DNA of 63,241 bases, counting the filler, from Stramenopiles sp. TOSAG23-3 (Eukaryota), in assembly GCA_900128585.1 (NCBI GenBank). It is 10 parts of 10 records of this genome, joined end to end, with 100 filler letters (N's around TTAATTAATTAA, not from the genome) between each part and the next. Parts side by side here need not be neighbours in the genome. Positions count along the whole stretch, not along the records: positions 15,231 to 22,740 come from LT643139.1; 9 more parts are not named here. One strand, given 5' to 3'. Positions 2,935 through 25,407 of the stretch are shown one piece after another (position 1 is the first letter of the stretch; the number at the start of each line of letters is the position of its first letter). Made by a program: the position numbers and the translations under genes. The notes beneath the pieces were generated by a model that saw only the letters and a program-made list of their open reading frames with translations, was not told where the DNA came from and searched no databases.

Positions 2935-3156
2935 AGTTTGAAAAAAATATATATACCATGTATAAAAAAACACTAATTATATAGTATGTTATATAATAGC
3001 ATTACTATAAAAAAAAATTATAAGTTTTTTATATATAATAATAGTACATGTGCTTTAAGACTCTCATTTTATATCAATTACGATTTCAGTTCCAACCCTA
3101 AAAACCTAAATAGGATTTTTTAAATTTGATTTTAATTTTAATTTCGTTTTAGTTGT

Positions 3157-5457: not shown

Positions 5458-6351
5458 TTTGCTGGTTCGTATATATGCACGAACGCAGTCTTTTCCGGTC
5501 AACGTATGATTATCTCTACTTGATCCAATCGTAACAAATGTTTCCTTGATCAAGACCGGAGCAAATTTCATTACAAGAAACAAATCGTAATATATATTAC
5601 CAGTGACGTCTATTAGGATGTAACCAAAATAATAATTATACCTTGCTCCTCATCACCTCTTTCCTCTCACTCCTCTCCCTCATTATTTAAAAAAAAAATG
5701 TATTTGTTTGCTGCTGTTTCCACCTTCTCATTGGACTAACATATCATCGCCGTTGAAACGGACAAAAAAAAAATTATTATAGAAAAAAACTACAAACCCT
5801 AATTTGAACTATCAAATATTGTCTATTAAAATATAGTATAGTTAATCGATCCATTAAGTACATTTATTATATTTAGCATCATAATTTACAATAATAATTA
5901 TAAAATAATAAAAACCTCGAAATTTGAAATTCAAACTGATTCCTCCTATTTGAAAATATGTTTATTGTAGTTAATATAAGTATTACCATACATCCTTGTC
6001 AACATCATCCCGCGGAAAAGTTATTCTTTTGTTGTTGATTATTGAGCTGCTGTGGTGGTATTATTATTATTATTATATTTTAATATTTATACTACTTTTC
6101 TCCATCCTCCCTTCTTCCTTCTTCCTTCTTCTTCTTCTTCCTTCTTCTAAAATTATTTTTATATTTTTTTCTTCTAAAAAACTTTTTTTTTTTTACTAAC
6201 TACCTTGGTACTCCTCTGGACTACCGATTGAGATGTAAATAGAATGCGAAAAATTGGAAATGGAAACGATTTTCTATGCCATCGATGTTGAATTGTTTAA
6301 GCGTTTAGCTTGCATCGTTGATTTATTTTTGTCTAGATAGTTGAGAACATT

Positions 6352-6942
6352 ATGGAGAATTACTACGACGTCGATTCGATTCTTGCATCGGAAGAGCGAG
6401 TCCCGGTGACGTTTAACTGCGATGCTGTTGGTCTTGGGTACTTGGGTGCTGGGTCAGGGAAAGAGGAGGACATAGCAGAAGGGACTCGTATGGAATTGCC
6501 CTTTTGGTTGGCTGATAGGCTCATCAGAAAGAAAATAGTTTCAATTAATTTGCCGAAATACTACACACAGAAGTACAGAAATTATCTTAAAGCAGACCCC
6601 CAGAGCATTGACGTCCGAAGTGCGTGCCCAGTCTATTACACCTTGGGTATGCGCTTGGCACCGTGGCTAGGGCTAGACCAGGAAGGCCAAGAAGCTTTGA
6701 AAAATGATCTGGTGGAAGCTCTGGTGGAGCGTTATTTCAGTGTGTTAGACTGCTCGCAAAATTCAAAGGGGGATGACAATTCTGATTTCATCAAGCCTTT
6801 AACAGAGGAAGAACGATTGTTGTTCGGCCTATCATTTAGCAGCGCTGTGGACTACGACAAGTGGAAGAATAGACTGCATGGAAAGCTACAGGTTAGTCGT
6901 GTCATGGGCAATATCAGGAAAAAAAGAAAGGTAGCCCATTAA
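6352..6942 (+). CDS. GINS3: DNA replication complex GINS subunit Psf3
   Basis: N-terminal YYDVDSILASEERVPVTF, then GTRMELPFWLA, LKADP..D and YYTLG; 196 aa, typical Psf3 size. Confidence 0.88.
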   Translation: MENYYDVDSILASEERVPVTFNCDAVGLGYLGAGSGKEEDIAEGTRMELPFWLADRLIRKKIVSINLPKYYTQKYRNYLKADPQSIDVRSACPVYYTLGMRLAPWLGLDQEGQEALKNDLVEALVERYFSVLDCSQNSKGDDNSDFIKPLTEEERLLFGLSFSSAVDYDKWKNRLHGKLQVSRVMGNIRKKRKVAH

Positions 6943-7159
6943 CTGGCGCTGCCCCAGCTTAACACGTTGTATTTTTGTTACATTTATATGCTTACACAAT
7001 ATATCATTTTAATTCGTACGAGTAAACTGCTTTAAATTGAATTATTGACACACGTATCACACGTAATACTTTTCGATACAGCTGCTGGAAGCAACCAAAT
7101 TACAAAACTGCGAAAGGCACAGGGGCGCCTCCACCAGAAGGCCTCGTGATCATGGTGGC

Positions 7160-7519
7160 CTACTCGTTCAAAATCATATCCCTCAACGTTGTGCGGGGCG
7201 TCTTCGCGGAAGGCAGCGAATCATCCACGTCCCTGGGGTGCTTTTTGGAGGCACTGTTGTCCTCGCGATGGTTAACTCGCTTTGTCAGTTCGGTAGCCAT
7301 CGCAGCGTCAACTCGTGATTGGGGGGCGTTCAAGAGCTCGTGGGCAGCCTGTAAATCGTTTATTGAGTTTGAAATCAGCTCTGGGACATCTTCTGTCAAT
7401 TCCTCCACTACGCTTGAGATCATTGCAACTTTGCGACTCAGCGCATCGTAGATTTGTTTGTTGAAATCGGCAGACATCTCCCTCCCTACATTTTCTTCGT
7501 CTTCGCCATCACTCTCAGC
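7160..7519 (-). CDS. Hypothetical protein, C-terminal fragment (5' end beyond contig edge)
   Basis: Frame is open from the contig edge (AESDGEDEENVGREMSADF...) to the stop at 7160; coding-like GC. Confidence 0.5.
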   Translation of the reverse strand, partial: AESDGEDEENVGREMSADFNKQIYDALSRKVAMISSVVEELTEDVPELISNSINDLQAAHELLNAPQSRVDAAMATELTKRVNHREDNSASKKHPRDVDDSLPSAKTPRTTLRDMILNE

Positions 7520-7520
7520 T

Positions 7521-7620
7521 NNNNNNNNNNNNNNNNNNNNNNNNNNNNNNNNNNNNNNNNNNNNTTAATTAATTAANNNNNNNNNNNNNNNNNNNNNNNN
7601 NNNNNNNNNNNNNNNNNNNN
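7521..7620. other. Artificial contig linker (N run with TTAATTAATTAA)
   Basis: Identical 100-nt linkers also at 15131-15230, 22741-22840, 30342-30441, 37941-38040, 45526-45625, 53111-53210, 60694-60793 and 61968-62067. Plain N gaps at 42146-42236 and 44253-44431. Confidence 0.97.
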
Positions 7621-7810
7621 AAAGAAAAAAAAAGGAGATTTACTGTCTTTTTCTTAGTTATATACCAACGTACGGAAGATTTGTTAAATGTTGCTTTGAA
7701 CGAATTTTAAACAATTAATTTGAAGCAAGGGCCAGAACAATTAACGAAAGAGGAGGGAAAGAGGGACAAAAAGAGAAGGAACGATCAATTTTGCTTCTAA
7801 TCTATACTCT

Positions 7811-10120
7811 ATGTCGCATGATGGTGGTTACACCAAGGTGTACACACGAGCATCTTTTGACGATGACTGTATGGGAGTTTGCGTAGAAATTCCGCGGGTG
7901 ATTGGTTCAGAGGGACAGTGCGTCGGACCTTATCATATAATCGCAAATCTACACGCTGATACCTGCGGAACCATAGCAGAGCAACTTTCAAATATTTACC
8001 CGGCCAAACCGTCTCCAGAGAGCTTCCGTATTATTTGGAAAGGTAGATCAATGAGCTTCCAAAGTCGACTCAGAGATTTAGTATTGTTGGACTATGATTC
8101 AGACGATCGCAAGCAGCATGATTTAAACGAAAAAGAGAATGGCCCATTACGAATAAAGTTGTCTGCAGTATTAAAACGAAAATACAAAGTCGCAGGAGAA
8201 GATTCTAGCGGGGGGGGTCGTGGTTCTGGAAAAGAGGAAGTTTCTGAGGTCGAGTCGGGGAGCAAACCCCCGGTCTCCTCAAAAGCTACCAGCGGCAACG
8301 TTTGCTCAGACGAGGGCGTGCCCAGTCTTGTTTCATACGACTCGGCGAGTCCAGACGACGAAATGCCGACTCTCTTCAGCTGTAGTGGCAGCAGCAGTGA
8401 TAGCAGTAGCAGCAGCAGTAGTAGTAGTAGTAGCGATGGCGAAGGCACCGAGGATTCCGGGGTAGATATTACCGAACTGCACGAGCAAATAGGACGGTTT
8501 GCGAGACGTGACGCCTTCGCACAATTCCACCGACGAGATCGCGAGGATTCGTTAGAGAATGTTCTTTTCGAATCAAGCTTGGCGGCAAATGCTCTAGGCC
8601 GAAGTATTGCCGTTGCATCGAGGAATCCGCATGTTCATGGGCCTACGTTGGCAACCGAGTTGCGGCAATTTTCGGGGTATATGAATTCCTTAGCAAGTGT
8701 TTTGGAAGCCCAGGGAGTTGAGAGTCTTTCGAGAACGGAGGAACGCGTTTGGGTAGATAACAGCGTGCAGCCTTCTCCGGATGCTGAAAACGAATATGGG
8801 GTAAGGACTAGCGGGGAAGCGAATGCCGCCCACGACCGTAGCAGATCAAGAAACGCAAACTCGAGCCAACCCTTTACTAATCTGTTCAATATGGCGTCAC
8901 AAAACATGGGGGCAGAAGCAGCTGAAAGCATTCGAAGCATTATAGGAAGCTTAACAGGCGGAAACAGCAGAAACAGCAATCAGGGCACAGCCGGACCCGT
9001 GGGCCCACTAGCGACTAACCCATACCAAATACCGGGGGGTACCGGTAGTGGGGGCATACAGGGGGTTTGGGACACCTCTCATTCGGACGGAAATTCAGGT
9101 AGGGACCAGTCGGCGCCGGAAACTTCCGAGACGATGCCCACGTCTGTAGATCGAAGTCGTTCTGTGCTTGACGAAGCGAGACTGATCATTCGTCTTGCAA
9201 TTTTGCAGAAATCGCGTTTGCCTCTAACACGCCTGCTTGCCGGTGTCGTGGACTTTTCCGATCCCCGAAGAAGGATTTCAGACATGGCTGCGACAGGAAG
9301 GAGCTTTTCGAAATTGCAGAGCGAAGTGTTTTTTCCATTTCAATCCATACTAATCGAGTTAATGCGAGTTACTTCTGTCAACAATGTGCTGAACCGAAGA
9401 GGATTTCGACTTGCTCATTTGGACACCACGCGTACACAAGGCGCGAGGAATGGTGGAGGAGGGGTAGTGCGTAAAATTGGGAGAATCTTAAAATCCTATC
9501 GCACCTTGCATTCCGTTAACCCAGGACACAGGGGCATGGATGCAGAAAGGTACTGGCCGTCAGTAATTTCTCAGAATTTGGAAAATTCAACCATACCACC
9601 CTTCAGCGTTGACGATGCGGAGTTTTCGTTCACCAACCCGGTTCGATCGTTTTGCACAAATCTTGGGAAATTGATCGTGGATCTGCTTTCATCGTTTTTG
9701 GTTTTTTTTGATAGCGAAGCGACTATCCAGCTGGAAACACCCGATACTGTATTCCGCCTTTCGGAAGAATTGGAAGAAAAACTAATCTCGTGGAGAAATA
9801 TGTTTGTCCACGAGTGCGTGCAAATCTCACGGCTGACCACGGTGACGACTCCTGCGGTTCGAGTGTGCCGATTACTTGTTGCGCATATTTTGGAACATTT
9901 GCCGTGGGGGATAGAATGCTATGAAACGTCGAGCGAACAATTTTACGCACTTGCAGCCCCGCTGACACGGTTCATATGCTCGCCATCAACAAGGCAAGTG
10001 TGGAACAAACGAAGGGACTCGACGGGTACGAATGGGTCGATGCTCCATGCAGCAGCGGCCAGCGGCAACCCTGACTTGCTTGAGCAAGCGCTTGACGAAA
10101 TCTTGCCTGAACTGGATTGA
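7811..10120 (+). CDS. Hypothetical protein with N-terminal ubiquitin-like segment and poly-Ser/low-complexity middle (BAG6-like architecture)
   Basis: 769-aa ORF. DTCGTIAEQLSNIYP...SFRIIWKGRSM...RLRDL resembles a UBL fold; poly-Ser tract at ~8388-8434; helical C-terminal half. The BAG6 relationship is only an inference. Confidence 0.55.
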   Translation: MSHDGGYTKVYTRASFDDDCMGVCVEIPRVIGSEGQCVGPYHIIANLHADTCGTIAEQLSNIYPAKPSPESFRIIWKGRSMSFQSRLRDLVLLDYDSDDRKQHDLNEKENGPLRIKLSAVLKRKYKVAGEDSSGGGRGSGKEEVSEVESGSKPPVSSKATSGNVCSDEGVPSLVSYDSASPDDEMPTLFSCSGSSSDSSSSSSSSSSSDGEGTEDSGVDITELHEQIGRFARRDAFAQFHRRDREDSLENVLFESSLAANALGRSIAVASRNPHVHGPTLATELRQFSGYMNSLASVLEAQGVESLSRTEERVWVDNSVQPSPDAENEYGVRTSGEANAAHDRSRSRNANSSQPFTNLFNMASQNMGAEAAESIRSIIGSLTGGNSRNSNQGTAGPVGPLATNPYQIPGGTGSGGIQGVWDTSHSDGNSGRDQSAPETSETMPTSVDRSRSVLDEARLIIRLAILQKSRLPLTRLLAGVVDFSDPRRRISDMAATGRSFSKLQSEVFFPFQSILIELMRVTSVNNVLNRRGFRLAHLDTTRTQGARNGGGGVVRKIGRILKSYRTLHSVNPGHRGMDAERYWPSVISQNLENSTIPPFSVDDAEFSFTNPVRSFCTNLGKLIVDLLSSFLVFFDSEATIQLETPDTVFRLSEELEEKLISWRNMFVHECVQISRLTTVTTPAVRVCRLLVAHILEHLPWGIECYETSSEQFYALAAPLTRFICSPSTRQVWNKRRDSTGTNGSMLHAAAASGNPDLLEQALDEILPELD

Positions 10121-12378: not shown

Positions 12379-13344
12379 ATGTTAAGAACGATTTTCTTGC
12401 TCGGTGTGGCCTTCTCAACGTCGCCTTCTGCTACGTTCCAGCCTGTAGAAGTCGGTGCTCGGACGGGCGATATTCTAACAGGGGCGGCTCTGACTTCGTA
12501 CCCGAATATGTCCCGCCCCATATTTGTCTCCTTCTCACCACGGCTCATCTACTACAATAATTTTTTGAGTGACGCCGAAGTTGAATATTTCAAGCACGCA
12601 GCCACGACACTGCGAGGGTGGAACAGTAGCGAGACGGGTTTAGTATCAGTATACTTTGAGAACGATGCGATTCACAATAACCCGATCGTAAATACGGTGG
12701 AAATGCGAATCGCAGCGGTCACCGGTATAGCCCCACACACAGACCAAGAGCCTTTGTGCATCCACAGGATTGTTGCGAGGCCCAACGATCCAAACAGAGT
12801 CGATGAAATCCACCACGACAAAGTTAACAAGCCCTTTACTACAGTGACGGTGTTGGTGTACTTGAGCGACGTCGAGGAGGGGGGAGAGACAATATTTCCC
12901 TGTCACATCGACCCAGAAACCAAAACACTTTGCAAAGACTCGTTCTACGGCGGGGCGCGCTGGCACAATGGCAAGCGGACGGTCGTAGAAGGACAAACAC
13001 ACTGGCAAGGGCAGGACAAGTCTTCTCGGAGACGCTCAAAGGTGGAAAAAGAAATGGCACTGTTGAAGCGAAGGGCCAATGAGTTTTGCGCGCAAGAGGA
13101 CAATAAATCAAGGGTGGAGGAGGCCTCTCTGTACGACAGGCCAAAAGGCATGAAAGTCTCCCCAAAGAAAGGGAGCGCAATTATATTCTGGCATGATATG
13201 CCCGGTCAAAATGGGGTAGGGGTCGGCGACGCCCTGGCGTGGCACACGGGATGCAAAGTAAGCAAGGGCGTGAAATGGACGATGCAGAAATTCTCGGAAG
13301 TGCCTCGAATGTCCCGCGCACGAACGTCTCAAAGGCTCCCGTAA
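12379..13344 (+). CDS. Prolyl 4-hydroxylase-like 2OG-Fe(II) oxygenase, signal peptide
   Basis: Hydrophobic N-terminus; SPRLIYYNNFLSDAE, HxD motif (HHD), TVLVYLSDVEEGGETIFP, PKKGSAIIF, HTGCKVSKGVKW. Confidence 0.88.
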   Translation: MLRTIFLLGVAFSTSPSATFQPVEVGARTGDILTGAALTSYPNMSRPIFVSFSPRLIYYNNFLSDAEVEYFKHAATTLRGWNSSETGLVSVYFENDAIHNNPIVNTVEMRIAAVTGIAPHTDQEPLCIHRIVARPNDPNRVDEIHHDKVNKPFTTVTVLVYLSDVEEGGETIFPCHIDPETKTLCKDSFYGGARWHNGKRTVVEGQTHWQGQDKSSRRRSKVEKEMALLKRRANEFCAQEDNKSRVEEASLYDRPKGMKVSPKKGSAIIFWHDMPGQNGVGVGDALAWHTGCKVSKGVKWTMQKFSEVPRMSRARTSQRLP

Positions 13345-13445
13345 TGGTATTTTTAATTAAAAAAACAAAAAATTGTCTGTTATTTAAGTACTTAAAATTT
13401 ATTATCTTTATAAACTGTGAACTCATCTCTGCTCCTGAGATTTTA

Positions 13446-15128
13446 CTAAAACAACATTCCCAATTTTAAAAAATTTAAAAGAACAAATACATTGAGTCGT
13501 TTTTCTGCCGAAGATTCCTCTTCAATGCCTTTTTCCAAACGCTTCTTTCTCTTCTGTTTTTGTTTGTCCACCCATCGACCCGCATTTATCTCCGTTCCAT
13601 CATCCAATGTGATGGAATAGTTCTGAGGTACATGCCCATCCCATTTCTTGCCAGGATTCTTCCTTTCGTATTCCAATTCATATCTAAAAATCGCATCGAC
13701 GTATTCCTCTAGTTTAATTTGGCGTATTTTTTCCCATAATATTCCAATTTTATTGAGTTGTTTTTCTGCCGGTGATCCCTCTTCAATACGTTTTTCCAAA
13801 CGCTTCCTTCTCATCACTTTTTGATACTTTACCCAATTACCCACGTTTGCCTCCGTTCCATCATCCAATGTGACGGAATAGCTTGTAGGTACATGCCCAT
13901 CCCATTTCTTGCCAGGATTCCCTTTTTCGATTTTCTCTTTGTATCCACGAATTGCAGCAATGTACTCCTCCAATTCAATTTTCCGTGCCATAACAACTTA
14001 CCATTGTATACCTATTTTATTGAGTCGTTTTTCTGCCGAAGATTCCTCTTCAATGCCTTTTTCCAAACGCTTCTTTCTCTTCCGTTTTTGAGTTGAAATC
14101 CAACTACCTACATTTACCAGGATACCATTTTCCAATGTAATGGAATAGTTCTGGGGTACACGTCCATCCCACTCTTTTTCAGGATACTTTGTTTCCTGTT
14201 TCTTTTTGTATTCAAGAATTAAATTAATGTACATGTCTAATCCAATATGTACTCCCCATAATAGACCCATTTCATTGAGCTGCTGTTCCTCAAATGATTC
14301 CTTTTCAATTCCACGTTCAATACGTTTCTTTCTTCTTTGTTTTATATGGCTCACCCAAATCCCCACGTTTGCCTTTGTTCCGTCGTCCAATGTGACGGAA
14401 TATTTATAAGGCACATTCCCATTCCACTTTTTAGCTCCATGCTCCTTTTTATACTCCTTTACAAGTTGAAGCATTTTTTCAGAGGAACATTTGATATTCT
14501 TCTTTCTTGATCTTAAGTTCCATGAAACTCCAATCGTAGTTAATTCCATTTCCACAGGTGATTCCTCTTCAATACCTGCTGCACGTCGTTTCTTTCTTTT
14601 CTGTTTTTGTGTGCCCACCCAAAACCCCACGTTTGCCACGGTCCCGTCGTCCAACGTGGCAGAATAGTTCCCAGGTACACGTCCATCCCATTCTTTTCCA
14701 GGATGATTCCTTTGGTATTCCACTTTATATTTAACAATTTCTTCGATGTGCTCCTTTTCTGTAATGGTGCGTTTCGCAACTTTAAGTTTATTCCATAATA
14801 TTCCAATTTTATTGAGTTGTTTTTCTGCTGGTGATTCCTCTTTAATACCTTTTTCCAAACGTTTCTTTCTCTTCATTTTCTGATTGTGTACCCATGCACC
14901 CACGTTTGCCTCTGTTCCATCTTCCAATGTGACGGAATAGGCCGTAGGCACATGACCATTCCACTCTCCCCCCCCATGCTCCTCCTTGTACTCTTTCACA
15001 AGTTGAAACATTGTCTCCCATTTAATGGCGCGTTTCGCAACTTTAAGTTTATTCCATAATATTCCTATCTCATCGAGTCGTTTTTCTGCTGGTGATTCCT
15101 CTTTAATACCTTTTTCCAAACGTTTCTT
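13446..15128 (-). pseudogene. Tandem helicase-associated (HA, PF03457-like) domain repeat protein; in-frame TAA at 13998-14000; 5'-partial
   Basis: At least 6 full and 1 partial ~80-aa repeats with the pattern L.EYK..HG...W.G.VP..YS.TL.DGT..NVG.WV..QK..RKKR......AEK.L..IGI.W. The two track ORFs are in one frame (TGG TAA GTT GTT ATG). Much more AT-rich than neighbouring genes. Confidence 0.75.
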
Positions 15129-15727
15129 TCNNNNNNNNNNNNNNNNNNNNNNNNNNNNNNNNNNNNNNNNNNNNTTAATTAATTAANNNNNNNNNNNNNN
15201 NNNNNNNNNNNNNNNNNNNNNNNNNNNNNNATTATGCTTGCAAATAATCCTTGCTGTTTACTACGCAGTGCTCACAATAATTTTGACGATGTTTTGTCAT
15301 ATCCTTTCTCGTATCTTGTTTCTTTTTTGAAGGATATTTAATAATAAACAACAGGAAGAACACCACAATAATAGACGAAACTATAGGACTATAATAATAT
15401 TAATAACACGCACAAATAAACGACGAGCCGAAAAAAAAAAAATTTTTGAAATAAAAATAATAAAATTATTTGATTTTTTTTTTTTTTATACTACTATTAT
15501 TACTACCGTACGAGGTACGAACGAACTCATTTCGACATTACCACAAAGACGAAGAGAAGCAAGGACCGACCTGGTTATTATTGAAATGTTTGTTAAATGG
15601 AATAATTTCTTTAATTTAATTTTTAATATATATACAGTTATTCAATAACATATGACGTGTACAGGTTTGTTTTGAAACGATTTTTTTGTATCTATCTATT
15701 GTACTTGATACAAGAACGCATTGATAT

Positions 15728-17266
15728 ATGTCCGTGCCGAATAACCAAGCCCGGCCCCAGCGACGGGACTCACTGGAGGGGTACCATGTCATCAAACGGA
15801 TTGAATTTTTGGGTAGGACGGTGCCGATACTGTGCCAAAATCAGAACGGCCCGTGCCCTCTGCTGGCAATATGCAATGTGCTTTTGCTGCGAGGTCACAT
15901 ACAAGTTCCTGCTGGGTTTGATCGCATCACCATAGAGGATGTGATACAGCTAATTGCAAATAGAATTATAGAGTCCAATACGGGCGACCAGTCCAACGTT
16001 GACCTTCGGAAAAACATAGACGACGTCATGTCGCTGCTTCCACGGCTGCAGAATGGCCTGGACGTAAACGTAAGGTATCGTCACAGCAAAGACTATGAGT
16101 TTACACAAGAAATTGCCATCTTCGACATACTAGGAATAAACCTTGTTCATGGTTGGTTGTACGACCCAGCGAACACGGCGGCGAAGAACGCGCTCGGCGC
16201 AAAGAGCTACAACGAGTTGGTCGAAAAAATAATAAATTTCGACTCGGCGAAATCCGATTACTTGAAGAAGAAGCAGGAGGGGTCCAAGAGCGATGAAGGT
16301 TCCAAAGGCGACGGGGCAGATGAAGAAGGCGGTGCCGGGGCAAAAGTAGGGGAAGAAGGTAGTAAATGCGGCCCAGAGGCTGAAGGGAAAATTGGGGAAG
16401 GCGCCGAGCGGGGCGCGGACAGATCTGGAAAAGAGGAAGAGGCATGTACTGGCACTGTGGGGCTCAGAGAGAAAGTTGCGGACGTGGACCAGGCCTTGCC
16501 TTGTGCGAAAACCGAAGATGGCGAGACTGCCCAGGAAACAGAAAAAGAGGATTTAGACCCAGAATTAATGCAGGCATTGCTGCTTAGCCGAGAGGCCTCG
16601 ATGTTGGAAACGTGGAAAGAGGAGAAAATCACCGTTGAAATAAATGGGGGAGAAGTGCGACTGGCCCAGCTCGCCGAAGATGCGAACACCATCCAAGAAT
16701 TTTTTAAAACAACGGCGAGCCAGTTGACCGTGCACGGGCTTGTAAAGCTGCACGAAGAAGTCAGGCCGCGGGAACTTTGCGTCTTTTTTCGTAACAACCA
16801 TTTCAGCACTTTGTTCAAAAAAGGTCACCAGGTGTACCTGCTGCTTACCGATCTGGGGTACCAGCAGCAGCAGGGCCTGGTGTGGGAGCTCTTGAATGAC
16901 ATCGACGGCAACACCACCTTGGTGGATTCCAGATTCGTGGAATCCTCCGGGCTGGCTTCCACGAGCAACATATACAACGCTGCGGTTGAGTTCGGGAGCT
17001 CATTTGGGCAAAAGGCAGCATCACCGTCGCGCCAAAGCAGCGAAGAGAACGACATGAGGCTGGCGATGCAGCTGCAAGCGCAGGAAGATGAACTGCAAAG
17101 GCAGCAACGCAGCGCGCACGGGGCACGGCAGCCTCCCGAAGCGGGTGGCAACGTCTTGGCACAGCAACAAGCGGAATACGAACGGTTAAAGAAGCAGCAT
17201 ATGGCGCAGCAGGCCGCAAATAACAAACGGGCGGGGAAGAAGAAACCCTCTTGTGTGATAAGCTAA
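15728..17266 (+). CDS. MINDY-1/2 family deubiquitinase (FAM63) with MIU-like motif and CaaX box
   Basis: Catalytic CQNQNGPCPLLAICNVLLL, LVHGWLYDP, FFRNNHFSTL, LLTDLGY...VWELL. DMRLAMQLQAQE is MIU-like; C-terminus is CVIS. Confidence 0.93.
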   Translation: MSVPNNQARPQRRDSLEGYHVIKRIEFLGRTVPILCQNQNGPCPLLAICNVLLLRGHIQVPAGFDRITIEDVIQLIANRIIESNTGDQSNVDLRKNIDDVMSLLPRLQNGLDVNVRYRHSKDYEFTQEIAIFDILGINLVHGWLYDPANTAAKNALGAKSYNELVEKIINFDSAKSDYLKKKQEGSKSDEGSKGDGADEEGGAGAKVGEEGSKCGPEAEGKIGEGAERGADRSGKEEEACTGTVGLREKVADVDQALPCAKTEDGETAQETEKEDLDPELMQALLLSREASMLETWKEEKITVEINGGEVRLAQLAEDANTIQEFFKTTASQLTVHGLVKLHEEVRPRELCVFFRNNHFSTLFKKGHQVYLLLTDLGYQQQQGLVWELLNDIDGNTTLVDSRFVESSGLASTSNIYNAAVEFGSSFGQKAASPSRQSSEENDMRLAMQLQAQEDELQRQQRSAHGARQPPEAGGNVLAQQQAEYERLKKQHMAQQAANNKRAGKKKPSCVIS

Positions 17267-17522
17267 GCTTCGTAAATTTCTTAAATTACTCAGGTTTTAC
17301 GCGTAACTTACTCGTATGCCGAAGAGAACACAACACATTCAGGACACTTTAAAAAAATTAAAAATAAGGAATAAAATATAAAAAAGAACTCGTTCTTTAT
17401 GAAAAAATCAAAATAATGGCGGTCATTTAAGTGTATTTAATTTTTTTTATTAAAAGACAAAGTTATACTGGTAAAAAAACTTGTCATCTCGCAATTTCGC
17501 TCGCTTTACATAAATCAACGTC

Positions 17523-20500
17523 TCACTCACCACGCTTTTCGTTCTCCCAGTCGCGGAGAATGCTCTTAAAGTTGAACGCCCCCGCCTGCTTGTTTTCGAT
17601 GGAAAGGGCGTCGCGCACAACTTCTAAAGCTTTGTTCAGCTGTGGCAAATTGTTCTTCTTATGGTCCGATGGAGAAACCTCGACGGATATGTCGGGGGAC
17701 ACACCGCAGTTTTCGATGCCATACCCTTTCCCGATGCCGTAATAGCCGCAGCTTGGATGCGCCACCTCTGTTCCGTCCACTAGCTTCGACGATTGTGAGA
17801 TCCCCACGACACCCCCCCACGTCCGTGTGCCTACAATGGTGCCGAGCCCGTACGCGCGGAAGGCATGAGCGCACACATCCGCATCGCTGCACGATTCTTC
17901 ATCAACTAGCAGCACTATGACCTGTTTTCGAGACGGAAGGTGAATCGGGAAGGGCTCCGGTCGCCCGTAGCGTGGAACTTCTATTCCGACGCACTTGGTA
18001 TTAAGTTTTTCCAACAGTAAATGGGATATAGAACCACCCCCATTCCCACGAATATCTACGATGATTGCATCCCGCTGCGACTCGACTAGAAAGCAACGGG
18101 ACCATTGGATGTACGCAACCGTGTCCATGTTGGGAACGTGAACGTATCCGCACTTGTTTCTGCTCTTTTCGTGAACGTAATTTGTCAGCTCCGCGACGCT
18201 GTCCTTGTACCGAATGAAGTCATCGACGTCTTTGGACACGCACCGGACACGGAATACTTTAAGCTCAGGACCCAAGCCAGCACCAACAGTTTGCTGTTGC
18301 CCGCCTTCTGTTTCTTTCTTTTGATGGTCTTCTCCACCGTTCCGCTTACCGCCTTTCCCTTTCCTTCGTTTGCCTCCCTTTTTCCCTTTTCCAGGATTCT
18401 CTTCCGCCCATGCGGTTTTGTCCTTTCCCCGCTTGGATTTACCCTTGCCCTTCCCATTCGCCGGAGCCTTTTTTTTTTGCTTCTTCTGGCGCAGTACTCC
18501 AAGGTACACCTCTTTACCGGCCATCCCCCTCAGCGCATAGGGCAACGAATAGTCTGTGGTAAGTTCGCGGTGGTTTACGGAAAATATTACGTCTCCAGGC
18601 TTGATGCCGATCCCAGGCCGGGCCAGGGGACCACAGTTTCTCAACGACCACGAATCGCCTTTGTAAAGTTTAACGATTCTGTTCCCTTTGATAGTTTTTC
18701 CCCCGTCGTTCATCGTGCATTCTTCCACATCGATTCCCAGGAACCCACGGTCGTTGTTCCCCTCTGAGCATTTTGCAAACGCGTCAAAGTCGCCTTTGTT
18801 CTCGTACGCATGCGAGCACCGCAACTCTGACAGCAGTTCGAGGAGAAGGTCTGAAAACTCTTCCCTTGTGTTGATTCTCTCCAGCAAAGGCGCGTACATG
18901 GCATAAATTCCTTTCCAGTCAAGGCCGCCCTTGCCAAATATTTCGGACTTGGTTACCTGCCACGCTTCCGCAAACATTTGCCGCCATTCCTCCCGTGGGA
19001 CAATTTCGACCCGCACACGGTCCTCAATGTTAATTTGCCCACTGACTTTGCGGCCACCCGCCCCCTCGTCCTCGCTGTCATCGTCGCTGCTGTCCCCTGA
19101 GCCGTCCTTGTCAAACATTTTTCGAATCCCGTACGCACTCACGATTCGCTCTCCATCTTCAACCTTGAACACCAACCCAGTGCTGTAGTCCATGGAGTAC
19201 TGGACGCCAACAATGTTTCGCCCACCGAAGAGAGATTCCTTGCACTTGTCTATGTTGTAACACGCCAGGGTGCCGGTTCCGTTCGCCTCCTCTTCTTCAT
19301 CACTATCATAGGCGCAGGATTCTTTGTTCTTTCCATCCATGACCAAGTCTCGGACGTACGTCACTTTGTTCGGCGAAACACACTGCAGCTGTCTAATTTT
19401 AAACCCGCTGGTGTTCAAGTTGGGGAACATTCCAACCCGGGACCCAATGCCGTTGAAGTCAATGACTGGTTGCTTTGTCGAGTAATTGGTCGGGTCATCT
19501 TCGCTGTCCGACCCGGAGCTGCCCTCACCTTCGTCAACCCAGCCGTCTTCCTCGCTGCCGTCGGAACTGCTGCTGTCCTCCTCGGATTCGCTGGACTCGT
19601 CGTCATCGTCGTCTTCCTCTGACGAAGAATCGCCGGCCGCTGGCCGTTCCGGCTTTCGCAGAAACGGCGAAGGGGTGTTGTTCTGCAAGGTTGCAAACAT
19701 GACGGTGTCGGAGGACGGAAACGTAATGTGCCCATCCCACACGTCGTCCTCGACAGGGCAGTATCGTCGGTTTGAGAGGAAGAATAGGTACCGCCCCGAT
19801 GGGTCGAACGCGGGGCTACTGTCCATGTAATACGACGGGGCCGTGACGTTGTGCACTTTTCCCGTCTTTACATTGGCAACCCTAATTATTGACGACATCA
19901 GCGTGTTTTTGTAGCAGTACCCCAAGTAATTCCCGCAAGGGCTGAACGTAAGGTCGTCCAAACCGTCCTCGTACAGGGCTTTGTCAATGTACTTCAAACT
20001 GCACTTCGCCAATTTGGACTGGCTTCCGGAAGCGGGGTACCGAACCAACAGGAGTTCTTCGCGGTTGTTGATCACGGCCAGCGCGTCGTGCTTGGGGGAC
20101 GGCACCATGTGCCAGGGCCTGCCAAGAGGGTCTAATTCGTCTAGCTTCTTGGACAATTTGTGCCCACCGTTGTCAAAGGTCAGCGAGACGGATTTGTTGG
20201 CAACGTTGTATTTGAAAGGCGCTGCCGCGTTCTCCTCGCCCCCCCGGTCGGCCGGTTTCTTTTTCGCCTTCTTTGCATTTTTCTCCTTCATGGCGCGAGC
20301 TTTATCCTTTTCTACATCCTCAACGTATTTTGGAAACTCCCTGCTGTCGTATTCATTGTCCGCTTTTCGGACCGTGGGAGACTCGAACAGCTCGATCACA
20401 GGGGCGTCGAAATCGGCGCGGTAGCTTACAGCAGCGATTCTTCCACACCGCAAGTATGTTGCTTTGCCATAGCGAACGCCTTGAAGGTCGCCAATCTGTA

Positions 20501-21641
20501 TCGCTGGTCCCCCAAACAGGGGCATTTCAAAGAGCCGCCCGCGAACCGTGGCGCAGAGCAAGTGTCCGTCTGGGTGGACCGTTGCCGCCCGGAAAAACTC
20601 GCAGGGTTCATCCAATGTCCGCCGCATAGCCGTTTGGCCAAAACTGTTCCAGGCCATGTCGACTTTTCTCTGCAACGACTGGCTTGAGCCGGACAAGGCG
20701 CCTGGAAGGTTCAACACGTAGAGGTCTCCGCCCGACTGATAAATCAACTGCTTGCTCTCGGAACATATGGCCAACTTTCGCGCGTAAAAGTCCGTGTGGT
20801 CAGTCAACTTTTCTACAACTTCTGCTCCGTCTTTGAGGAACGCTGCCAAATCGAACGCGTACACGTTTCCCGGGGCATTGTCTTCTGGATCTGCTATAAA
20901 GTAAATGCACTGTGTCGCTTCACAAAGTTGGGGCGACCCAACGTTGAACTCCCGGCAGACGCGCACAAAGTCTCGTTCGCCCGCCGCGTTCACCGATAGC
21001 CAAAGTTGCCCGATGTTCCCCCCCTTGTAGTGCTTCCACTCAGCAAGGTGGGGGTCTCGCGTGTGCCGGCCTATAACGACTGCCCCGCTTTTCCCGGGCT
21101 GGTACACCGACGCCTCCCCGTACTCCACGGGCGCAAGGGATCCAGTCGTTATGTCGAGGGCTGACACCGCTACGGTCGACGGGCGAACCCCGGTCGTCTG
21201 TTGCCGCAGCACGTACAGCTTGCGCGGGTCACCCCGGTCGAAATCCAAGACGCGGAGGTGGTCGTCCCCGCAAAATGTTAGCTGCTTGGGCGGTCCCCCG
21301 CAGAAGGGCACTAAATAAACTTCGCTTTCCCCATCTGCCGCAGACGAAAATGCGACAATGTTGCCGTCCCTCGAGATTGCGACGGATTCGCACTCCCCGC
21401 AAGTCGTAAGCCGCCGACAGGCGTTCGGAGCCCCAGACTGAAGCTGGTCGATAACAAACACGTCGTCTTCAGATATAAACCCTACTTTGCCGTTGCGTAT
21501 GGCAGGACATCGGTAGTAGCCTTGGCAACCCGTGCTCAGCCCCTCACTAGAACCTCGCGATAGACTCAGTTGCTGGAGCAACGTCTCCAAGTCCGCTGAT
21601 GCGTCTACGCTGTTCACCGACGTTTTCAACCGATTCAACAT
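17523..21641 (-). CDS. Tricorn protease (peptidase S41B): beta-propellers, C1, PDZ-like and catalytic C2 domains
   Basis: GYYRCPAI...FISEDDVF, WKHYKGG..GQLW, LTDHTDFYAR, DSSPAFDPSGRYLFFLSNR, EWRQMFAEAW, ELRCSHAY (catalytic His), GYVHVPNM, IIVDIRGNGGG, EESCSDADV (catalytic Ser), GTRTWGGVVGI, IENCGVSPDI. Confidence 0.93.
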   Translation of the reverse strand: MLNRLKTSVNSVDASADLETLLQQLSLSRGSSEGLSTGCQGYYRCPAIRNGKVGFISEDDVFVIDQLQSGAPNACRRLTTCGECESVAISRDGNIVAFSSAADGESEVYLVPFCGGPPKQLTFCGDDHLRVLDFDRGDPRKLYVLRQQTTGVRPSTVAVSALDITTGSLAPVEYGEASVYQPGKSGAVVIGRHTRDPHLAEWKHYKGGNIGQLWLSVNAAGERDFVRVCREFNVGSPQLCEATQCIYFIADPEDNAPGNVYAFDLAAFLKDGAEVVEKLTDHTDFYARKLAICSESKQLIYQSGGDLYVLNLPGALSGSSQSLQRKVDMAWNSFGQTAMRRTLDEPCEFFRAATVHPDGHLLCATVRGRLFEMPLFGGPAIQIGDLQGVRYGKATYLRCGRIAAVSYRADFDAPVIELFESPTVRKADNEYDSREFPKYVEDVEKDKARAMKEKNAKKAKKKPADRGGEENAAAPFKYNVANKSVSLTFDNGGHKLSKKLDELDPLGRPWHMVPSPKHDALAVINNREELLLVRYPASGSQSKLAKCSLKYIDKALYEDGLDDLTFSPCGNYLGYCYKNTLMSSIIRVANVKTGKVHNVTAPSYYMDSSPAFDPSGRYLFFLSNRRYCPVEDDVWDGHITFPSSDTVMFATLQNNTPSPFLRKPERPAAGDSSSEEDDDDDESSESEEDSSSSDGSEEDGWVDEGEGSSGSDSEDDPTNYSTKQPVIDFNGIGSRVGMFPNLNTSGFKIRQLQCVSPNKVTYVRDLVMDGKNKESCAYDSDEEEEANGTGTLACYNIDKCKESLFGGRNIVGVQYSMDYSTGLVFKVEDGERIVSAYGIRKMFDKDGSGDSSDDDSEDEGAGGRKVSGQINIEDRVRVEIVPREEWRQMFAEAWQVTKSEIFGKGGLDWKGIYAMYAPLLERINTREEFSDLLLELLSELRCSHAYENKGDFDAFAKCSEGNNDRGFLGIDVEECTMNDGGKTIKGNRIVKLYKGDSWSLRNCGPLARPGIGIKPGDVIFSVNHRELTTDYSLPYALRGMAGKEVYLGVLRQKKQKKKAPANGKGKGKSKRGKDKTAWAEENPGKGKKGGKRRKGKGGKRNGGEDHQKKETEGGQQQTVGAGLGPELKVFRVRCVSKDVDDFIRYKDSVAELTNYVHEKSRNKCGYVHVPNMDTVAYIQWSRCFLVESQRDAIIVDIRGNGGGSISHLLLEKLNTKCVGIEVPRYGRPEPFPIHLPSRKQVIVLLVDEESCSDADVCAHAFRAYGLGTIVGTRTWGGVVGISQSSKLVDGTEVAHPSCGYYGIGKGYGIENCGVSPDISVEVSPSDHKKNNLPQLNKALEVVRDALSIENKQAGAFNFKSILRDWENEKRGE

Positions 21642-22145
21642 GGAAAGAAAAGAAAGAACTACGACGGTAGTAAATATATTATTATTGAAACCAAGGAAGC
21701 AACTAGCACAATAGGCACATCAGAGAAAGATAGAATATATAAAAAAATTCACTCCAATCCCCAAAAGGGAAATGCAACAAACACTAGACGACTATTCTGA
21801 ATATCAATATTTAAATTATAAACAATTTATATATAATCAATCTGTACCAAAGTACCAAAGTATAATTATTTGCTGCTTCAAGACTCAAGACTCCTCTCAC
21901 TTCTTCTTCTTTATTACCTTGGTGGTATTTCAATTTAAAATGATTTCCGTCCCCTCCATCATCCAACCTTATTATTATAGTCATATATAAAACCCTAACT
22001 TGTTATTTTAATTTAATTTTTTATATGATTTTATTTTTTCTCTCCTCTGCTGGTGAATTGGTTGGGTGGACGACGACGAGAAGAGTTATATTATTTAAAC
22101 TTATTATTATAGTAGTGTCTAGTTATTAAAATATAGAGGAAGGAA

Positions 22146-22177
22146 ACTGAGGACTAACTGAGGACTGAGGACTGAGG
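22146..22177 (+). repeat. Short tandem ACTGAGG repeat (4 copies) in the divergent intergenic region
   Basis: actgagg actaactgagg actgagg actgagg read directly. Confidence 0.7.
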
Positions 22178-22325
22178 ATGCCGCAGCAGAAAAGAGAGGT
22201 GGGGGTGGTTAAGCACAATTGATCATGTGAAAGAGAAGAAAGACCTTTCGTAGTGTTTAAATTCAGAGACGTTTTCATTCCTTTTCTTTCTGCCTCAACA
22301 TCAATATACAGACGTATTTTATAGG

Positions 22326-22740
22326 ATGTCGTGCCATCATCATACGTCTGCGTCCGATTTGGCTTCACAGAGCAACGTCGATACGATTCGACAGACCCAT
22401 ATCTCTCTGGACCTAAGGGCGGACTTTGAGAAGGAACAGTTAATAGGGCATGCTGTTATTAAATTTGTAGTTGTTGCGGACAAAGCGACAGAAATATGCC
22501 TGGACACCCACTCCCTGAACGTGAAAAGTGTCCGAATCGTAGACTCGGGGGAGCCTGCTACCTTTCGCCTCTCCGACCCGCACAAGGTCTTCGGTCGCGC
22601 GCTTGTGGTTGAAGTCCCGGGCGCTCTTCAGGGAAAGGGGTCGGAAGTCACCGTAGCCATCGAGTACGAGACGACCAAAGCAGGCGGGGCGATCCAATGG
22701 CTGCCACCGGCCCAAACCGAGGGAAAAAAGCACCCCTTCC
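22326..22740 (+). CDS. LTA4H: Leukotriene A4 hydrolase-like M1 aminopeptidase, 3'-partial
   Basis: D.ASQSN....THISLDLRADF..EQLIG, LDTHSLNVKSV, FGRALVV, IEYETT....AIQWLPPAQTEGKKHPF matches the LTA4H N-domain. Truncated by the contig end. Confidence 0.87.
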
Positions 22741-22842: not shown

Positions 22843-25407
22843 CAGGCGTCATTTTCATCCACACGACAACGTCCATGTATATCGGTTGCTTCGACCGGAC
22901 GGCTTCTTGCACCTGGCGGCTTCTTTGAAATAAGAAAAGAGTATACGTTCCATTACTACAACAAGCCGAACGTCAAGACAAAGGCCCAAAGTTTTTCGAA
23001 CCAACCGTACCGCTGCCTTGCCAATGGAATTTTTCGGTCCCAGCCAGCGGCGTACCGCTATGCCGAAGTGCACGGCTGCCCAGAGCCCACGAAAAAAGTC
23101 TACGAAGTGTACCAAAATGCCTGCAGGGCCGAAATGGTGAACCTTTTCAACGATGGGAACTGGGTGCCGATGTACGAGCAGCTTCTCGTGTTGGTAAACC
23201 TCGCCGGCTTGAGCTACAACGCCCAAATCTCTCAGATTTTAACATCCATCTGCGGGCAGCTGCGGCAGCTGTCCCTGGAGGCAGCCACCCTTTCCAAGGT
23301 TATGGATCGCATTCTGCACCACCACGGAATAAACCAAAACCTCCTGGAGCTGATGGAGACAAACGTACATTTCCAGTTCAAATCCTTTTACAAACGAAAC
23401 GCCGCCCTGGTCCAAGGGGGTGGATTGGGCCGCAGCAGTACCTTCGCTGCCCTGAAACTACCCATCAGGGCCCTGCTTGACAGTCTGTTTGACATCCGCA
23501 CTAGAGAGCTGATCCTGTCTGACGATTCGGTCCGGTACCTGCGCGACATTGGCCGGATGTATAGAACTGGTGAGCTGTCTTTGGCCGCCGACGCGAAAGA
23601 GCTGTTCGTAACTTTGAACGTTTTGGTCGAAAAATCGGTCGCAAAAGTGACGGACGCAAGGCCAAAGGCAAGCCCCGTCAATGTGCCAAAAACGCCGAGG
23701 CTTGACGTGGACAAGGAGACCAACCACAACATTGAAATCAATCGCTTCCCGGCCAAGATTGCTCGAGAAGCTGTTGTCTGCCAGTACTTTGCAGACTCCC
23801 ACATGGATACGACCATGGCAGAAATCTACAAAAACTTGTTGACTGAGCCGCTGTACCCGAACCCGTTCCCGCACATCACCAGGACCCTGCAAGGGGCGTG
23901 GGCCCGCAACCAACTGTGGATCCAGAGCGACGACAGCATCGAAGAGGAGTTGTTTTCGACCCCGACCACCTGCCTGGAGCGGCATCTGGAAAGCCAGCCG
24001 ACCTGTTACGTGGAAAGCTGCGGGAAAAAAGATGAGATGATATTTGGGGTTCACAATGCCTTGTCCTGCGCAGACCCCCACCTGCTGGACAAGCTGTTCG
24101 ACCATCTGCCGATCTTGCAGAACAGCACCGACGCATCTGTGCACATGAAGAACAACACGGAGCACATCTGCACTGCCCTGACCCGTGACACCGTAATAGA
24201 GTCTAGGATCACGTCCTCCCAGCAAGGCGGCCTGCCGAGCTTCATAGAGTGCCACGAACATTACCCGATTGAAGGGGCAGTCAAGCGCAGTGCCATCCGT
24301 CTGTTCGTGGAGCATATCATGATGTACGTGAAATGGTTCCAGGAGGGCACGGCCAACATCGTGCGGGCCTTGTCTACCGGTGCGTGCGGGGACGAGAGTA
24401 TATTTACAATGAAAAGCAACCGGATGAATTTCAATATCGCCCAGGTCACAAAAAGTGTCGCCACCGTCCGAAGGGAGCTCCTGAAGGCCGCTGCGGACCA
24501 GCATGGTATTTGCATGCATGCTTTTGTGAAGCTTGGACCGCCGTTCCCGAACGATAAGTGGATATATCTCCGCAAATGGTTTATTTTGCATTGGAGAGAC
24601 CCTAAAACGGAATGCATTGAACACCACTCGCAGGACCTTTGTCAGGCAATATACGAAGACGCGTTCTTTGACCAGACTGTCGCGGAGATTGCCATGGAAG
24701 CGCAATTAGACCCGAACAAGTTCGGTCAAGGTTATGAAAACCCAGCCAATCATTCCACGGCCATGTACGAAAAGTATGCGCTCGCAACTCGAACGGAGGT
24801 CGCTCGCTGCTGGAAAGTGGGAAACCTCGTCGGCGCCTACCACGCACTTCTTCCGTATGCCCTGGCGCACGTCGAAGACGAGGAAATTATGCTGGATTTA
24901 GTCCGCATGCTGCGGAGTCCAGCACAAAAGTTGACGCACTTTCAAGTGGAAAATTGCGTTTTGCAGCATTTGATTACTGGCTTTTCCAGCAAAGACAGTG
25001 ACGATTCTGCGAAAGACAAAATTTCGTCCGCAACAATCAAGCGTCAGCTTGTGCAGCACCGCCAAGAAGTCTTGACGGTGTTAGAAGATGTAGGGGACGT
25101 CTTCGTGTCGGGCTCGCTAATCGAAATGAACTCAAAATTGTGCCAAGTGGAAAGGTACATAGGTAGCAACGACGCCACGAAAGTCGCCGACTCGGTAGAA
25201 ATGCTGAAAGAGTGTGTGGCGTATATGAAAGGCATAGCAGCCTGTATTGCGGACGCCGTTCACGCGAACTGTCCGCACATCAATGATGTCATTGAACGTT
25301 GCGTCGACGAGTATGAAGAATCGCTTCATGTTACTGCAAAAGATAGTGGCTTTCACGTGGACGTGGATCATATGGAGAGCCAAATCGATACCTACGACGA
25401 CATTTAA
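22843..25407 (+). CDS. Hypothetical protein, 5'-partial, with internal repeat and a Dpy-30/RIIa-like docking motif
   Basis: Frame open from the contig edge (22843) to 25407. QYFADSHMDTTMAEIYKNLLTEPLYPNPFPHITRTL resembles a dimerization/docking helix pair. Confidence 0.7.
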   Translation, partial: QASFSSTRQRPCISVASTGRLLAPGGFFEIRKEYTFHYYNKPNVKTKAQSFSNQPYRCLANGIFRSQPAAYRYAEVHGCPEPTKKVYEVYQNACRAEMVNLFNDGNWVPMYEQLLVLVNLAGLSYNAQISQILTSICGQLRQLSLEAATLSKVMDRILHHHGINQNLLELMETNVHFQFKSFYKRNAALVQGGGLGRSSTFAALKLPIRALLDSLFDIRTRELILSDDSVRYLRDIGRMYRTGELSLAADAKELFVTLNVLVEKSVAKVTDARPKASPVNVPKTPRLDVDKETNHNIEINRFPAKIAREAVVCQYFADSHMDTTMAEIYKNLLTEPLYPNPFPHITRTLQGAWARNQLWIQSDDSIEEELFSTPTTCLERHLESQPTCYVESCGKKDEMIFGVHNALSCADPHLLDKLFDHLPILQNSTDASVHMKNNTEHICTALTRDTVIESRITSSQQGGLPSFIECHEHYPIEGAVKRSAIRLFVEHIMMYVKWFQEGTANIVRALSTGACGDESIFTMKSNRMNFNIAQVTKSVATVRRELLKAAADQHGICMHAFVKLGPPFPNDKWIYLRKWFILHWRDPKTECIEHHSQDLCQAIYEDAFFDQTVAEIAMEAQLDPNKFGQGYENPANHSTAMYEKYALATRTEVARCWKVGNLVGAYHALLPYALAHVEDEEIMLDLVRMLRSPAQKLTHFQVENCVLQHLITGFSSKDSDDSAKDKISSATIKRQLVQHRQEVLTVLEDVGDVFVSGSLIEMNSKLCQVERYIGSNDATKVADSVEMLKECVAYMKGIAACIADAVHANCPHINDVIERCVDEYEESLHVTAKDSGFHVDVDHMESQIDTYDDI

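Follow-up and report, generated by a model that had tools for sequence, protein, structure and literature searches.

A single contig of Stramenopiles sp. TOSAG23-3 (LT643139.1; assembly GCA_900128585.1) carries three genes side by side that encode a MINDY-type deubiquitinase, a tricorn protease and, divergent from the latter, the first part of an M1 aminopeptidase of the LTA4H type; the question raised by this locus is whether the three form a functional unit or are neighbors for other reasons. The window, that is, the whole stretch of 63,241 nucleotides that was analyzed, is not one molecule: it consists of contigs of about 7.5 kb chained by artificial N44-TTAATTAATTAA-N44 spacers, and the three genes share one of these contigs (Table 1). 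In Thermoplasma, tricorn passes its products to the factors F1 and F2/F3. An earlier note on this DNA had proposed that the eukaryote paired an acquired tricorn with its own M1 peptidase under a bidirectional promoter, rebuilding a pathway like that of F2 and F3, and had added the caveat of chance adjacency in a compact genome. Our results favor the caveat: the three are most probably nuclear genes of an uncultured marine protist, stramenopile-like by its nearest named relatives, that are independent of one another and adjacent by chance or as leftover synteny and not a co-regulated module, and we infer that a dedicated coupling between tricorn and M1 is absent. The spacing of the pair is the default of this genome and the pair was not seen in relatives, as the caveat would have it; the promoter and the rebuilt pathway, in turn, are not supported, given an ordinary spacer, a pairing not seen in the relatives compared, and an M1 enzyme of the LTA4H type.

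Domain matches agree with the assignment of all three genes on the contig to proteolysis, and the start codons of the divergent tricorn (-) and M1 (+) genes, previously placed about 685 bp apart, are separated by 684 bp. Scanning metagenome contigs yielded an environmental one of 17,206 bp (L001) whose tricorn is 99.9% identical to that of the window across all 1372 residues and whose tricorn/M1 intergenic region and M1 start are 96% identical to the window, with the indels between the two clustering in the tricorn/M1 spacer. On the strength of these identities, L001 can be assigned to the same species as the window contig, and the order LTA4H-tricorn-MINDY is identical in the two independent records. 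Strands alternate strictly over all six genes of L001. The sampled words of the contig were also recovered, to between 67 and 88%, from ten metagenome runs; the runs belong to seven studies, and none is marked as a possible source of this DNA.

The spacer between tricorn and M1 is ordinary, since it is of the kind that any head-to-head neighbors have in this genome. Among open reading frames (ORFs) of at least 200 amino acids, the other divergent pairs in the window are separated by 510, 1131, and 1395 bp (n = 3), and the convergent pairs lie 141 to 1374 bp apart (n = 8).

Comparison with relatives points in the same direction. Close relatives of the tricorn protein form only three clusters, all of which derive from marine metagenomes or from a set of protist proteins: the window's own (100% identity, 1372 amino acids), a sister cluster (P0005; 54 to 57% identity to the window tricorn, 1355 to 1406 amino acids), and a more distant one (P0006; 41% identity, about 1372 amino acids). 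Co-location in the sister lineage was judged by equal sizes in base pairs of the carrying contigs, their DNA not being read, and with one contig, the longest, shown per protein; as a positive control, this matching correctly places both tricorn and M1 of the window species on a contig of 17,206 bp. The sister-lineage tricorns lie on 11 contigs (22,790, 25,077, 43,572, 18,124, 16,078, 15,700, 11,947, 10,122, 5,335, 1,410, and 874 bp). There were no size matches between these and the contigs of 11 M1 clusters, comprising all 7 at 61 to 100% identity and 4 at 49 to 57%, among the 70 of 87 members listed, two of the clusters being compared in part (15 of 18 and 15 of 29 members). The closest of these M1 clusters, 70% identical, is carried by contigs no longer than 11,602 bp, and therefore none of its members can lie on the five longer contigs that encode a whole or near-whole tricorn (1355 to 1406 amino acids). 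The 43,572-bp contig holds only the C-terminal 910 residues of tricorn, and the upstream side may thus be missing there. For MINDY the outcome is positive: the sister-lineage tricorns P0043 and P0044 and the MINDY proteins P0358 and P0363 share contig sizes of 18,124 and 43,572 bp, from which it follows that tricorn and MINDY are still co-located in the sister lineage. The MINDY cluster concerned is the closest one, at 47% identity, and its size-matched members come from the same sources as the tricorns.

In a more distant relative (L002), the 775-bp flank before the tricorn ATG contains neither an M1 start nor any similarity to M1, and the one ORF in this stretch, of 75 amino acids, has no Pfam match. 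Downstream of tricorn, L003 and L004 each carry a 230-amino-acid ORF with no Pfam match, followed in L004 by an RCC1-repeat gene; neither M1 nor MINDY was found by tblastn in L002 to L004. The synteny that the earlier note had suggested looking for in related protists is thus not conserved, as far as size matching and the flank of L002 show. M1 genes are also scarce near prokaryotic tricorns, being present at only two of 86 loci with flanks. One of these is a Thermoplasmatales metagenome-assembled genome (MAG) in which M1 lies 3 kb downstream of tricorn, past three unrelated genes (L031). In the other, a betaproteobacterial MAG (L020), an 884-amino-acid M1 of the PepN/ERAP1_C type (3118-5772, minus strand) is divergent from tricorn (5851-9228, plus strand) at a distance of 78 bp; the nearest tricorn relatives of this locus (L051, L059, L022, and L046) have no M1 neighbor.

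The M1 enzyme itself belongs to a subfamily other than that of the Thermoplasma factors. Its gene is cut short at position 22740 by the end of the contig, not by biology, and the 138 residues encoded in the window are identical to the N terminus of a 629-amino-acid protein on L001 that has the full LTA4H architecture of Peptidase_M1_N, Peptidase_M1, and Leuk-A4-hydro_C, so that the earlier label "LTA4H-like" was apt. Direct reading of the L001 translation showed an intact zinc motif, HEITH-X18-E, and an intact exopeptidase motif, GGMEN, both of which lie outside residues 1 to 138 held by the window. Human LTA4H was matched over residues 4 to 626 (E = 7e-168), and Thermoplasma factor F3 was matched in the catalytic region only (residues 119 to 470; E = 1.2e-15). 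The full-length protein is 45 to 50% identical to LTA4H of fungi, animals, amoebae, and green algae. Because of this end-to-end match and the level of identity to its orthologues, the enzyme is, judged from its sequence, the cell's own ordinary, vertically inherited housekeeping LTA4H/leucyl aminopeptidase; in this respect, the view that M1 is the eukaryote's own holds. With LTA4H and the yeast leucyl aminopeptidase yscIV it shares the three Pfam domains, the HEXXH-X18-E and GXMEN motifs, and a match over the full length, and the protein is unremarkable; what is unusual is only the position of its gene next to tricorn.

With F2 and F3 of Thermoplasma (1Z1W, 3Q7J) the protist enzyme has in common the family of M1 zinc aminopeptidases, the fold of the catalytic domain, and the motifs. 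F3, however, has 780 amino acids, whereas the protist M1 has 629 and ends in a Leuk-A4-hydro_C tail; a length of about 780 residues, an ERAP1_C-type C terminus, and a closest match to F3 or PSA, which would mark an F2/F3-type enzyme, were not found in it. In passages of one structural report, PSA is described as having the overall architecture of F3, which served as the search model in solving it, and LTA4H is called "smaller" (PMC10343166). The product of the third gene covers positions 3 to 264 of the 264-position MINDY_DUB profile (PF04424), the full length of the domain, and its nearest named relatives, at 34 to 37% identity, are from brown algae.

Unlike M1, tricorn appears to have come from outside. 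Beyond the three protist clusters, the next matches are bacterial, at 28 to 40% identity. In trees built from 80 named prokaryotic loci and further metagenome proteins (FastTree, 107 rows; IQ-TREE, 52 rows), for which midpoint or Bacteroidota-type outgroup roots were assumed, the protist tricorns grouped as a single clade (6 rows in FastTree, 4 in IQ-TREE) that was supported at 100% and whose stem measured about 1.1 changes per site. In both trees, this clade fell inside a strongly supported prokaryotic group of bacterial and archaeal tricorns, where its placement among Bacteroidota/Cloacimonadota, Ignavibacteriota, Thermoplasmatota, and others was not resolved. The nesting among prokaryotic tricorns, with full support and a long stem, supports the claim that tricorn was acquired, and the simplest reading of these trees would be one acquisition from a prokaryote. 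A language-model atlas contains a tricorn-like cluster labeled green-algal (1603 amino acids, 99 members), and tricorn-like genes are therefore present in other eukaryotes too. A scan of viral contigs gave nothing, genome contigs scanned with protist-only patterns held no relatives, and we found no publication on protist or algal tricorn in the open-access literature, which is not proof of absence. An Aspergillus protein with a "tricorn N-terminal domain" was set aside: in passages of the source, it bears a propeller-domain annotation only, and it is not a tricorn protease (PMC12502532).

The protist protein has the hallmarks of an intact tricorn. Four stretches of it, together spanning residues 47 to 1347, can be aligned with Thermoplasma tricorn (1K32; E = 2.2e-67), and it shows the domain order PF14684, PF14685, PF03572 together with a weak PD40 match; PF26549 and PF26550 are precomputed on the database record of an identical protein. 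The order of regions, N-terminal propeller, C1, PDZ, and S41 catalytic domain, is thus that of the Thermoplasma enzyme (1K32, 1N6D; MEROPS S41). Residues S1252, H944, S943, and E1310 align with the active-site positions of 1K32, which we take to be the catalytic Ser965, His746, Ser745, and Glu1023 of Thermoplasma tricorn, in that numbering and with those roles, so that the Ser/His/Ser/Glu positions are conserved; H944, S1252, and E1310 do not vary among 18 homologues, and S943 is invariant in alignments of 5 and 6 sequences. Of the two arginines that presumably hold the substrate C terminus in Thermoplasma tricorn, one is matched by R130, whereas the position of the second is taken by a valine (V131). 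The protist tricorn further differs in having a eukaryotic host and in being some 300 residues longer than prokaryotic tricorns (1372 versus 1045 to 1071 amino acids), a surplus that is due to low-complexity inserts, acidic ones rich in Ser, Asp, and Glu and others rich in Lys and Gly, which also occur in both related protist clusters. On direct reading and with no predictor applied, neither tricorn nor M1 shows an N-terminal hydrophobic stretch, and for this reason both proteins are presumably cytosolic.

In four studies, contigs assembled from RNA libraries overlap the LTA4H, tricorn, MINDY, CRAL/TRIO, and calpain genes in part, which is compatible with expression of the covered genes; such assembled contigs show presence but cannot rank or correlate genes, and carry-over of DNA is possible. 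Cover is thin over the tricorn-M1 spacer (L001 3635-4299), a pattern readable neither as an untranscribed stretch nor as a promoter boundary.

How surprising such a neighborhood is can be put into rough figures. Peptidases and deubiquitinases typically make up about 3 to 4% of genes, a general share and not that of this genome; with it, the chance of three proteolysis genes among three neighbors is roughly 4e-5, and that of four among six roughly 2e-5. By this rough estimate, three of three is unusual at any one locus and yet expected many times when a quarter of a million windows, each containing numerous sets of three genes, are scanned. Several points nevertheless weigh against chance adjacency, among them the limits of the size matching given above and the partial comparison of two M1 clusters. 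Four of the six genes of L001 (LTA4H, tricorn, MINDY, and calpain) are related to proteolysis, and, at a rough estimate from typical gene-family sizes, an aminopeptidase as the direct neighbor of tricorn is improbable, at far below 1%. The biochemical fit is also good, as tricorn yields peptides of 2 to 4 residues and LTA4H-type enzymes prefer tripeptides. Since a coincidence of tricorn with an aminopeptidase is rarer than a general clustering of proteolysis genes, we put the odds that the pairing of tricorn and M1 is real and specific to this lineage at about one in ten.

Such a pairing could take the form of a lineage-specific, co-regulated gene pair in which the 684-bp spacer is a shared bidirectional promoter and an endopeptidase and its finishing aminopeptidase are made together. 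We consider this unlikely. The two genes have divergent starts 684 bp apart, both are intact, neither product begins with a hydrophobic stretch on direct reading, RNA-library contigs of four studies include stretches of each, the independent contig of the same species has the arrangement unchanged, and the betaproteobacterial M1 of L020, 78 bp from its tricorn, is divergent as well; however, the size and orientation of the spacer are the default of the genome, the M1 is of the LTA4H subfamily and not of the F2/F3 or PSA type, size matching gave no sign of the pair among the tricorn contigs of the sister lineage, the upstream flank of tricorn in the more distant relative lacks it as well, and the pair's prokaryotic counterpart is sporadic (2 of 86) and missing in the nearest relatives of L020. 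MINDY1 and MINDY2 trim K48 chains, and the more elaborate arrangement in which a captured tricorn is wired head-to-head with an LTA4H tripeptide aminopeptidase under one bidirectional promoter, beside a K48-trimming MINDY, seems to us quite unlikely.

It is equally doubtful that LTA4H, tricorn, MINDY, and calpain are kept within 15 kb by selection for one chromatin or expression domain, as a protein-turnover neighborhood with tricorn and MINDY at its core. The four proteolysis-related genes among the six of L001 would be accounted for in this way, as would the co-location of tricorn and MINDY in the sister lineage on contigs of 18,124 and 43,572 bp; but tricorn and MINDY lie tail-to-tail and share no promoter, the more distant relative lacks their link, SPX and CRAL/TRIO genes are mixed in among the others, and synteny between sister species needs no functional cause. 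An artifact, with tricorn as bacterial contamination or the product of a chimeric join in a fragmented assembly, might be suspected from an assembly in contigs of about 7.5 kb and from the fact that the nearest relatives outside the protists are bacterial. It is extremely improbable and was rejected, being effectively refuted by the LTA4H-tricorn-MINDY order in an independent 17.2-kb record, by the many metagenome runs that hold most of the contig, by eukaryote-style low-complexity inserts common to the sister clusters, and by the co-location of tricorn with a eukaryote-type MINDY in a second lineage.

Under the preferred explanation of independent genes adjacent by chance or leftover synteny, tricorn would be a prokaryotic serine peptidase gained by the ancestor of a few related protist lineages and then "eukaryotized" with inserts of about 300 residues. 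Most likely it would still cleave oligopeptides, for instance products of the proteasome, into very short peptides in the cytosol, while the LTA4H-type M1 and other aminopeptidases would trim short peptides to amino acids and MINDY would trim ubiquitin chains, recycling them. Whatever the location of their genes, the three enzymes would meet in one broad turnover pathway. That tricorn and M1 lie head-to-head is most likely a product of a compact genome with strand-alternating neighbors and short spacers, and the neighborhood of tricorn and MINDY is probably older synteny common with the sister lineage.

The case shows that three "related" neighbors in a compact genome can be coincidence. If the fuller arrangement with a shared promoter were true, it would amount to a eukaryotic re-invention of the archaeal line of tricorn plus aminopeptidase downstream of the proteasome and might take the place of TPPII; the Thermoplasma tricorn/F1/F2/F3 pathway was reportedly described by Tamura et al. 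in 1998. Tricorn and TPPII have in common a presumed role as a large cytosolic peptidase downstream of the proteasome and differ in that their folds and families are unrelated, TPPII being of the subtilisin type. A functional pairing would also mean that gene order had served to build a transferred gene into a host pathway, which is rare in eukaryotes, and would suggest that the need of tricorn for a finishing aminopeptidase is general. What we regard as modestly interesting is that a few marine protist lineages hold an intact, prokaryote-derived tricorn clade that is present in RNA libraries, and the lasting interest of the locus lies in this eukaryotic clade and its retained neighborhood with MINDY.

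Table 1. Features of the contig under study, in positions of the window, and gene order on the environmental contig L001.
Feature	Record	Position	Strand	Remarks
Contig under study	Window	15231-22740		7,510 bp; edges are N runs and TTAATTAATTAA spacers
MINDY-type deubiquitinase	Window	15728-17266	+	512 amino acids, one ORF; PF04424, E = 1.7e-86
MINDY/tricorn convergent spacer	Window	17267-17522		256 bp; tail-to-tail genes
Tricorn protease	Window	17523-21641	-	1372 amino acids, one ORF; Peptidase_S41, Tricorn_C1, PDZ_Tricorn; prokaryotic-type
Tricorn/M1 divergent spacer	Window	21642-22325		684 bp between start codons; AT-rich (from the sequence)
M1 aminopeptidase, LTA4H-type, 5' part	Window	22326-22740	+	138 codons; Peptidase_M1_N, E = 3.3e-06
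SPX-domain protein	L001, gene 1		+
LTA4H-type M1 aminopeptidase	L001, gene 2		-	629 amino acids
Tricorn	L001, gene 3		+
MINDY	L001, gene 4		-
CRAL/TRIO protein	L001, gene 5		+
Calpain-domain protein	L001, gene 6	13320-16940	-	1206 amino acids

Some further features of the two records were noted. The 1206-residue protein of L001, three genes from tricorn, has as its sole recognized Pfam domain the calpain cysteine-protease domain at residues 702 to 992. In the window, the ORF at 23068-25407, past the spacer that follows M1, belongs to a different contig, has no Pfam match, and is unrelated to the three genes. On the neighboring contig on the other side, positions 13446-15119 (minus strand) hold two adjoining ORFs, one of 373 amino acids with a clear helicase-associated (HA) domain and one of 181 amino acids whose HA match is weak and under the Pfam cut-off.

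Within the LTA4H gene, two RNA-library contigs (X16 and X19) have 9 other letters in place of 177 nucleotides of coding sequence (L001 2838-3016), so that 56 codons are lost in frame close to where the catalytic domain begins, in a part of the gene that the copy in the window lacks. As further base differences are present, this variant is probably a diverged allele or strain and not a product of splicing.

The intergenic regions differ between the two records as well. By alignment, the MINDY/tricorn spacer of L001 (8419-8857) holds an extra insertion of 183 bp, bordered by a 12-bp direct duplication (GAACACAACACA), that has no counterpart at 17267-17522 of the window. The insertion is a high-copy repeat, with a depth of 25 to 500 in RNA-library contigs versus about 1 to 10 elsewhere, and joints link it to a second copy at about 1470-1560 of L001, in the convergent SPX/LTA4H spacer; the pattern suggests a short mobile element that inserts after gene ends and is present in some copies of the locus but absent from others. 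The tricorn/M1 spacer contains a short run of GAGGACT-like heptamers (ctgaggactaactgaggactgaggactgagga) at positions 22100-22200 of the window, some 150 bp ahead of the M1 start codon, and the number of heptamer copies differs between the window and L001.

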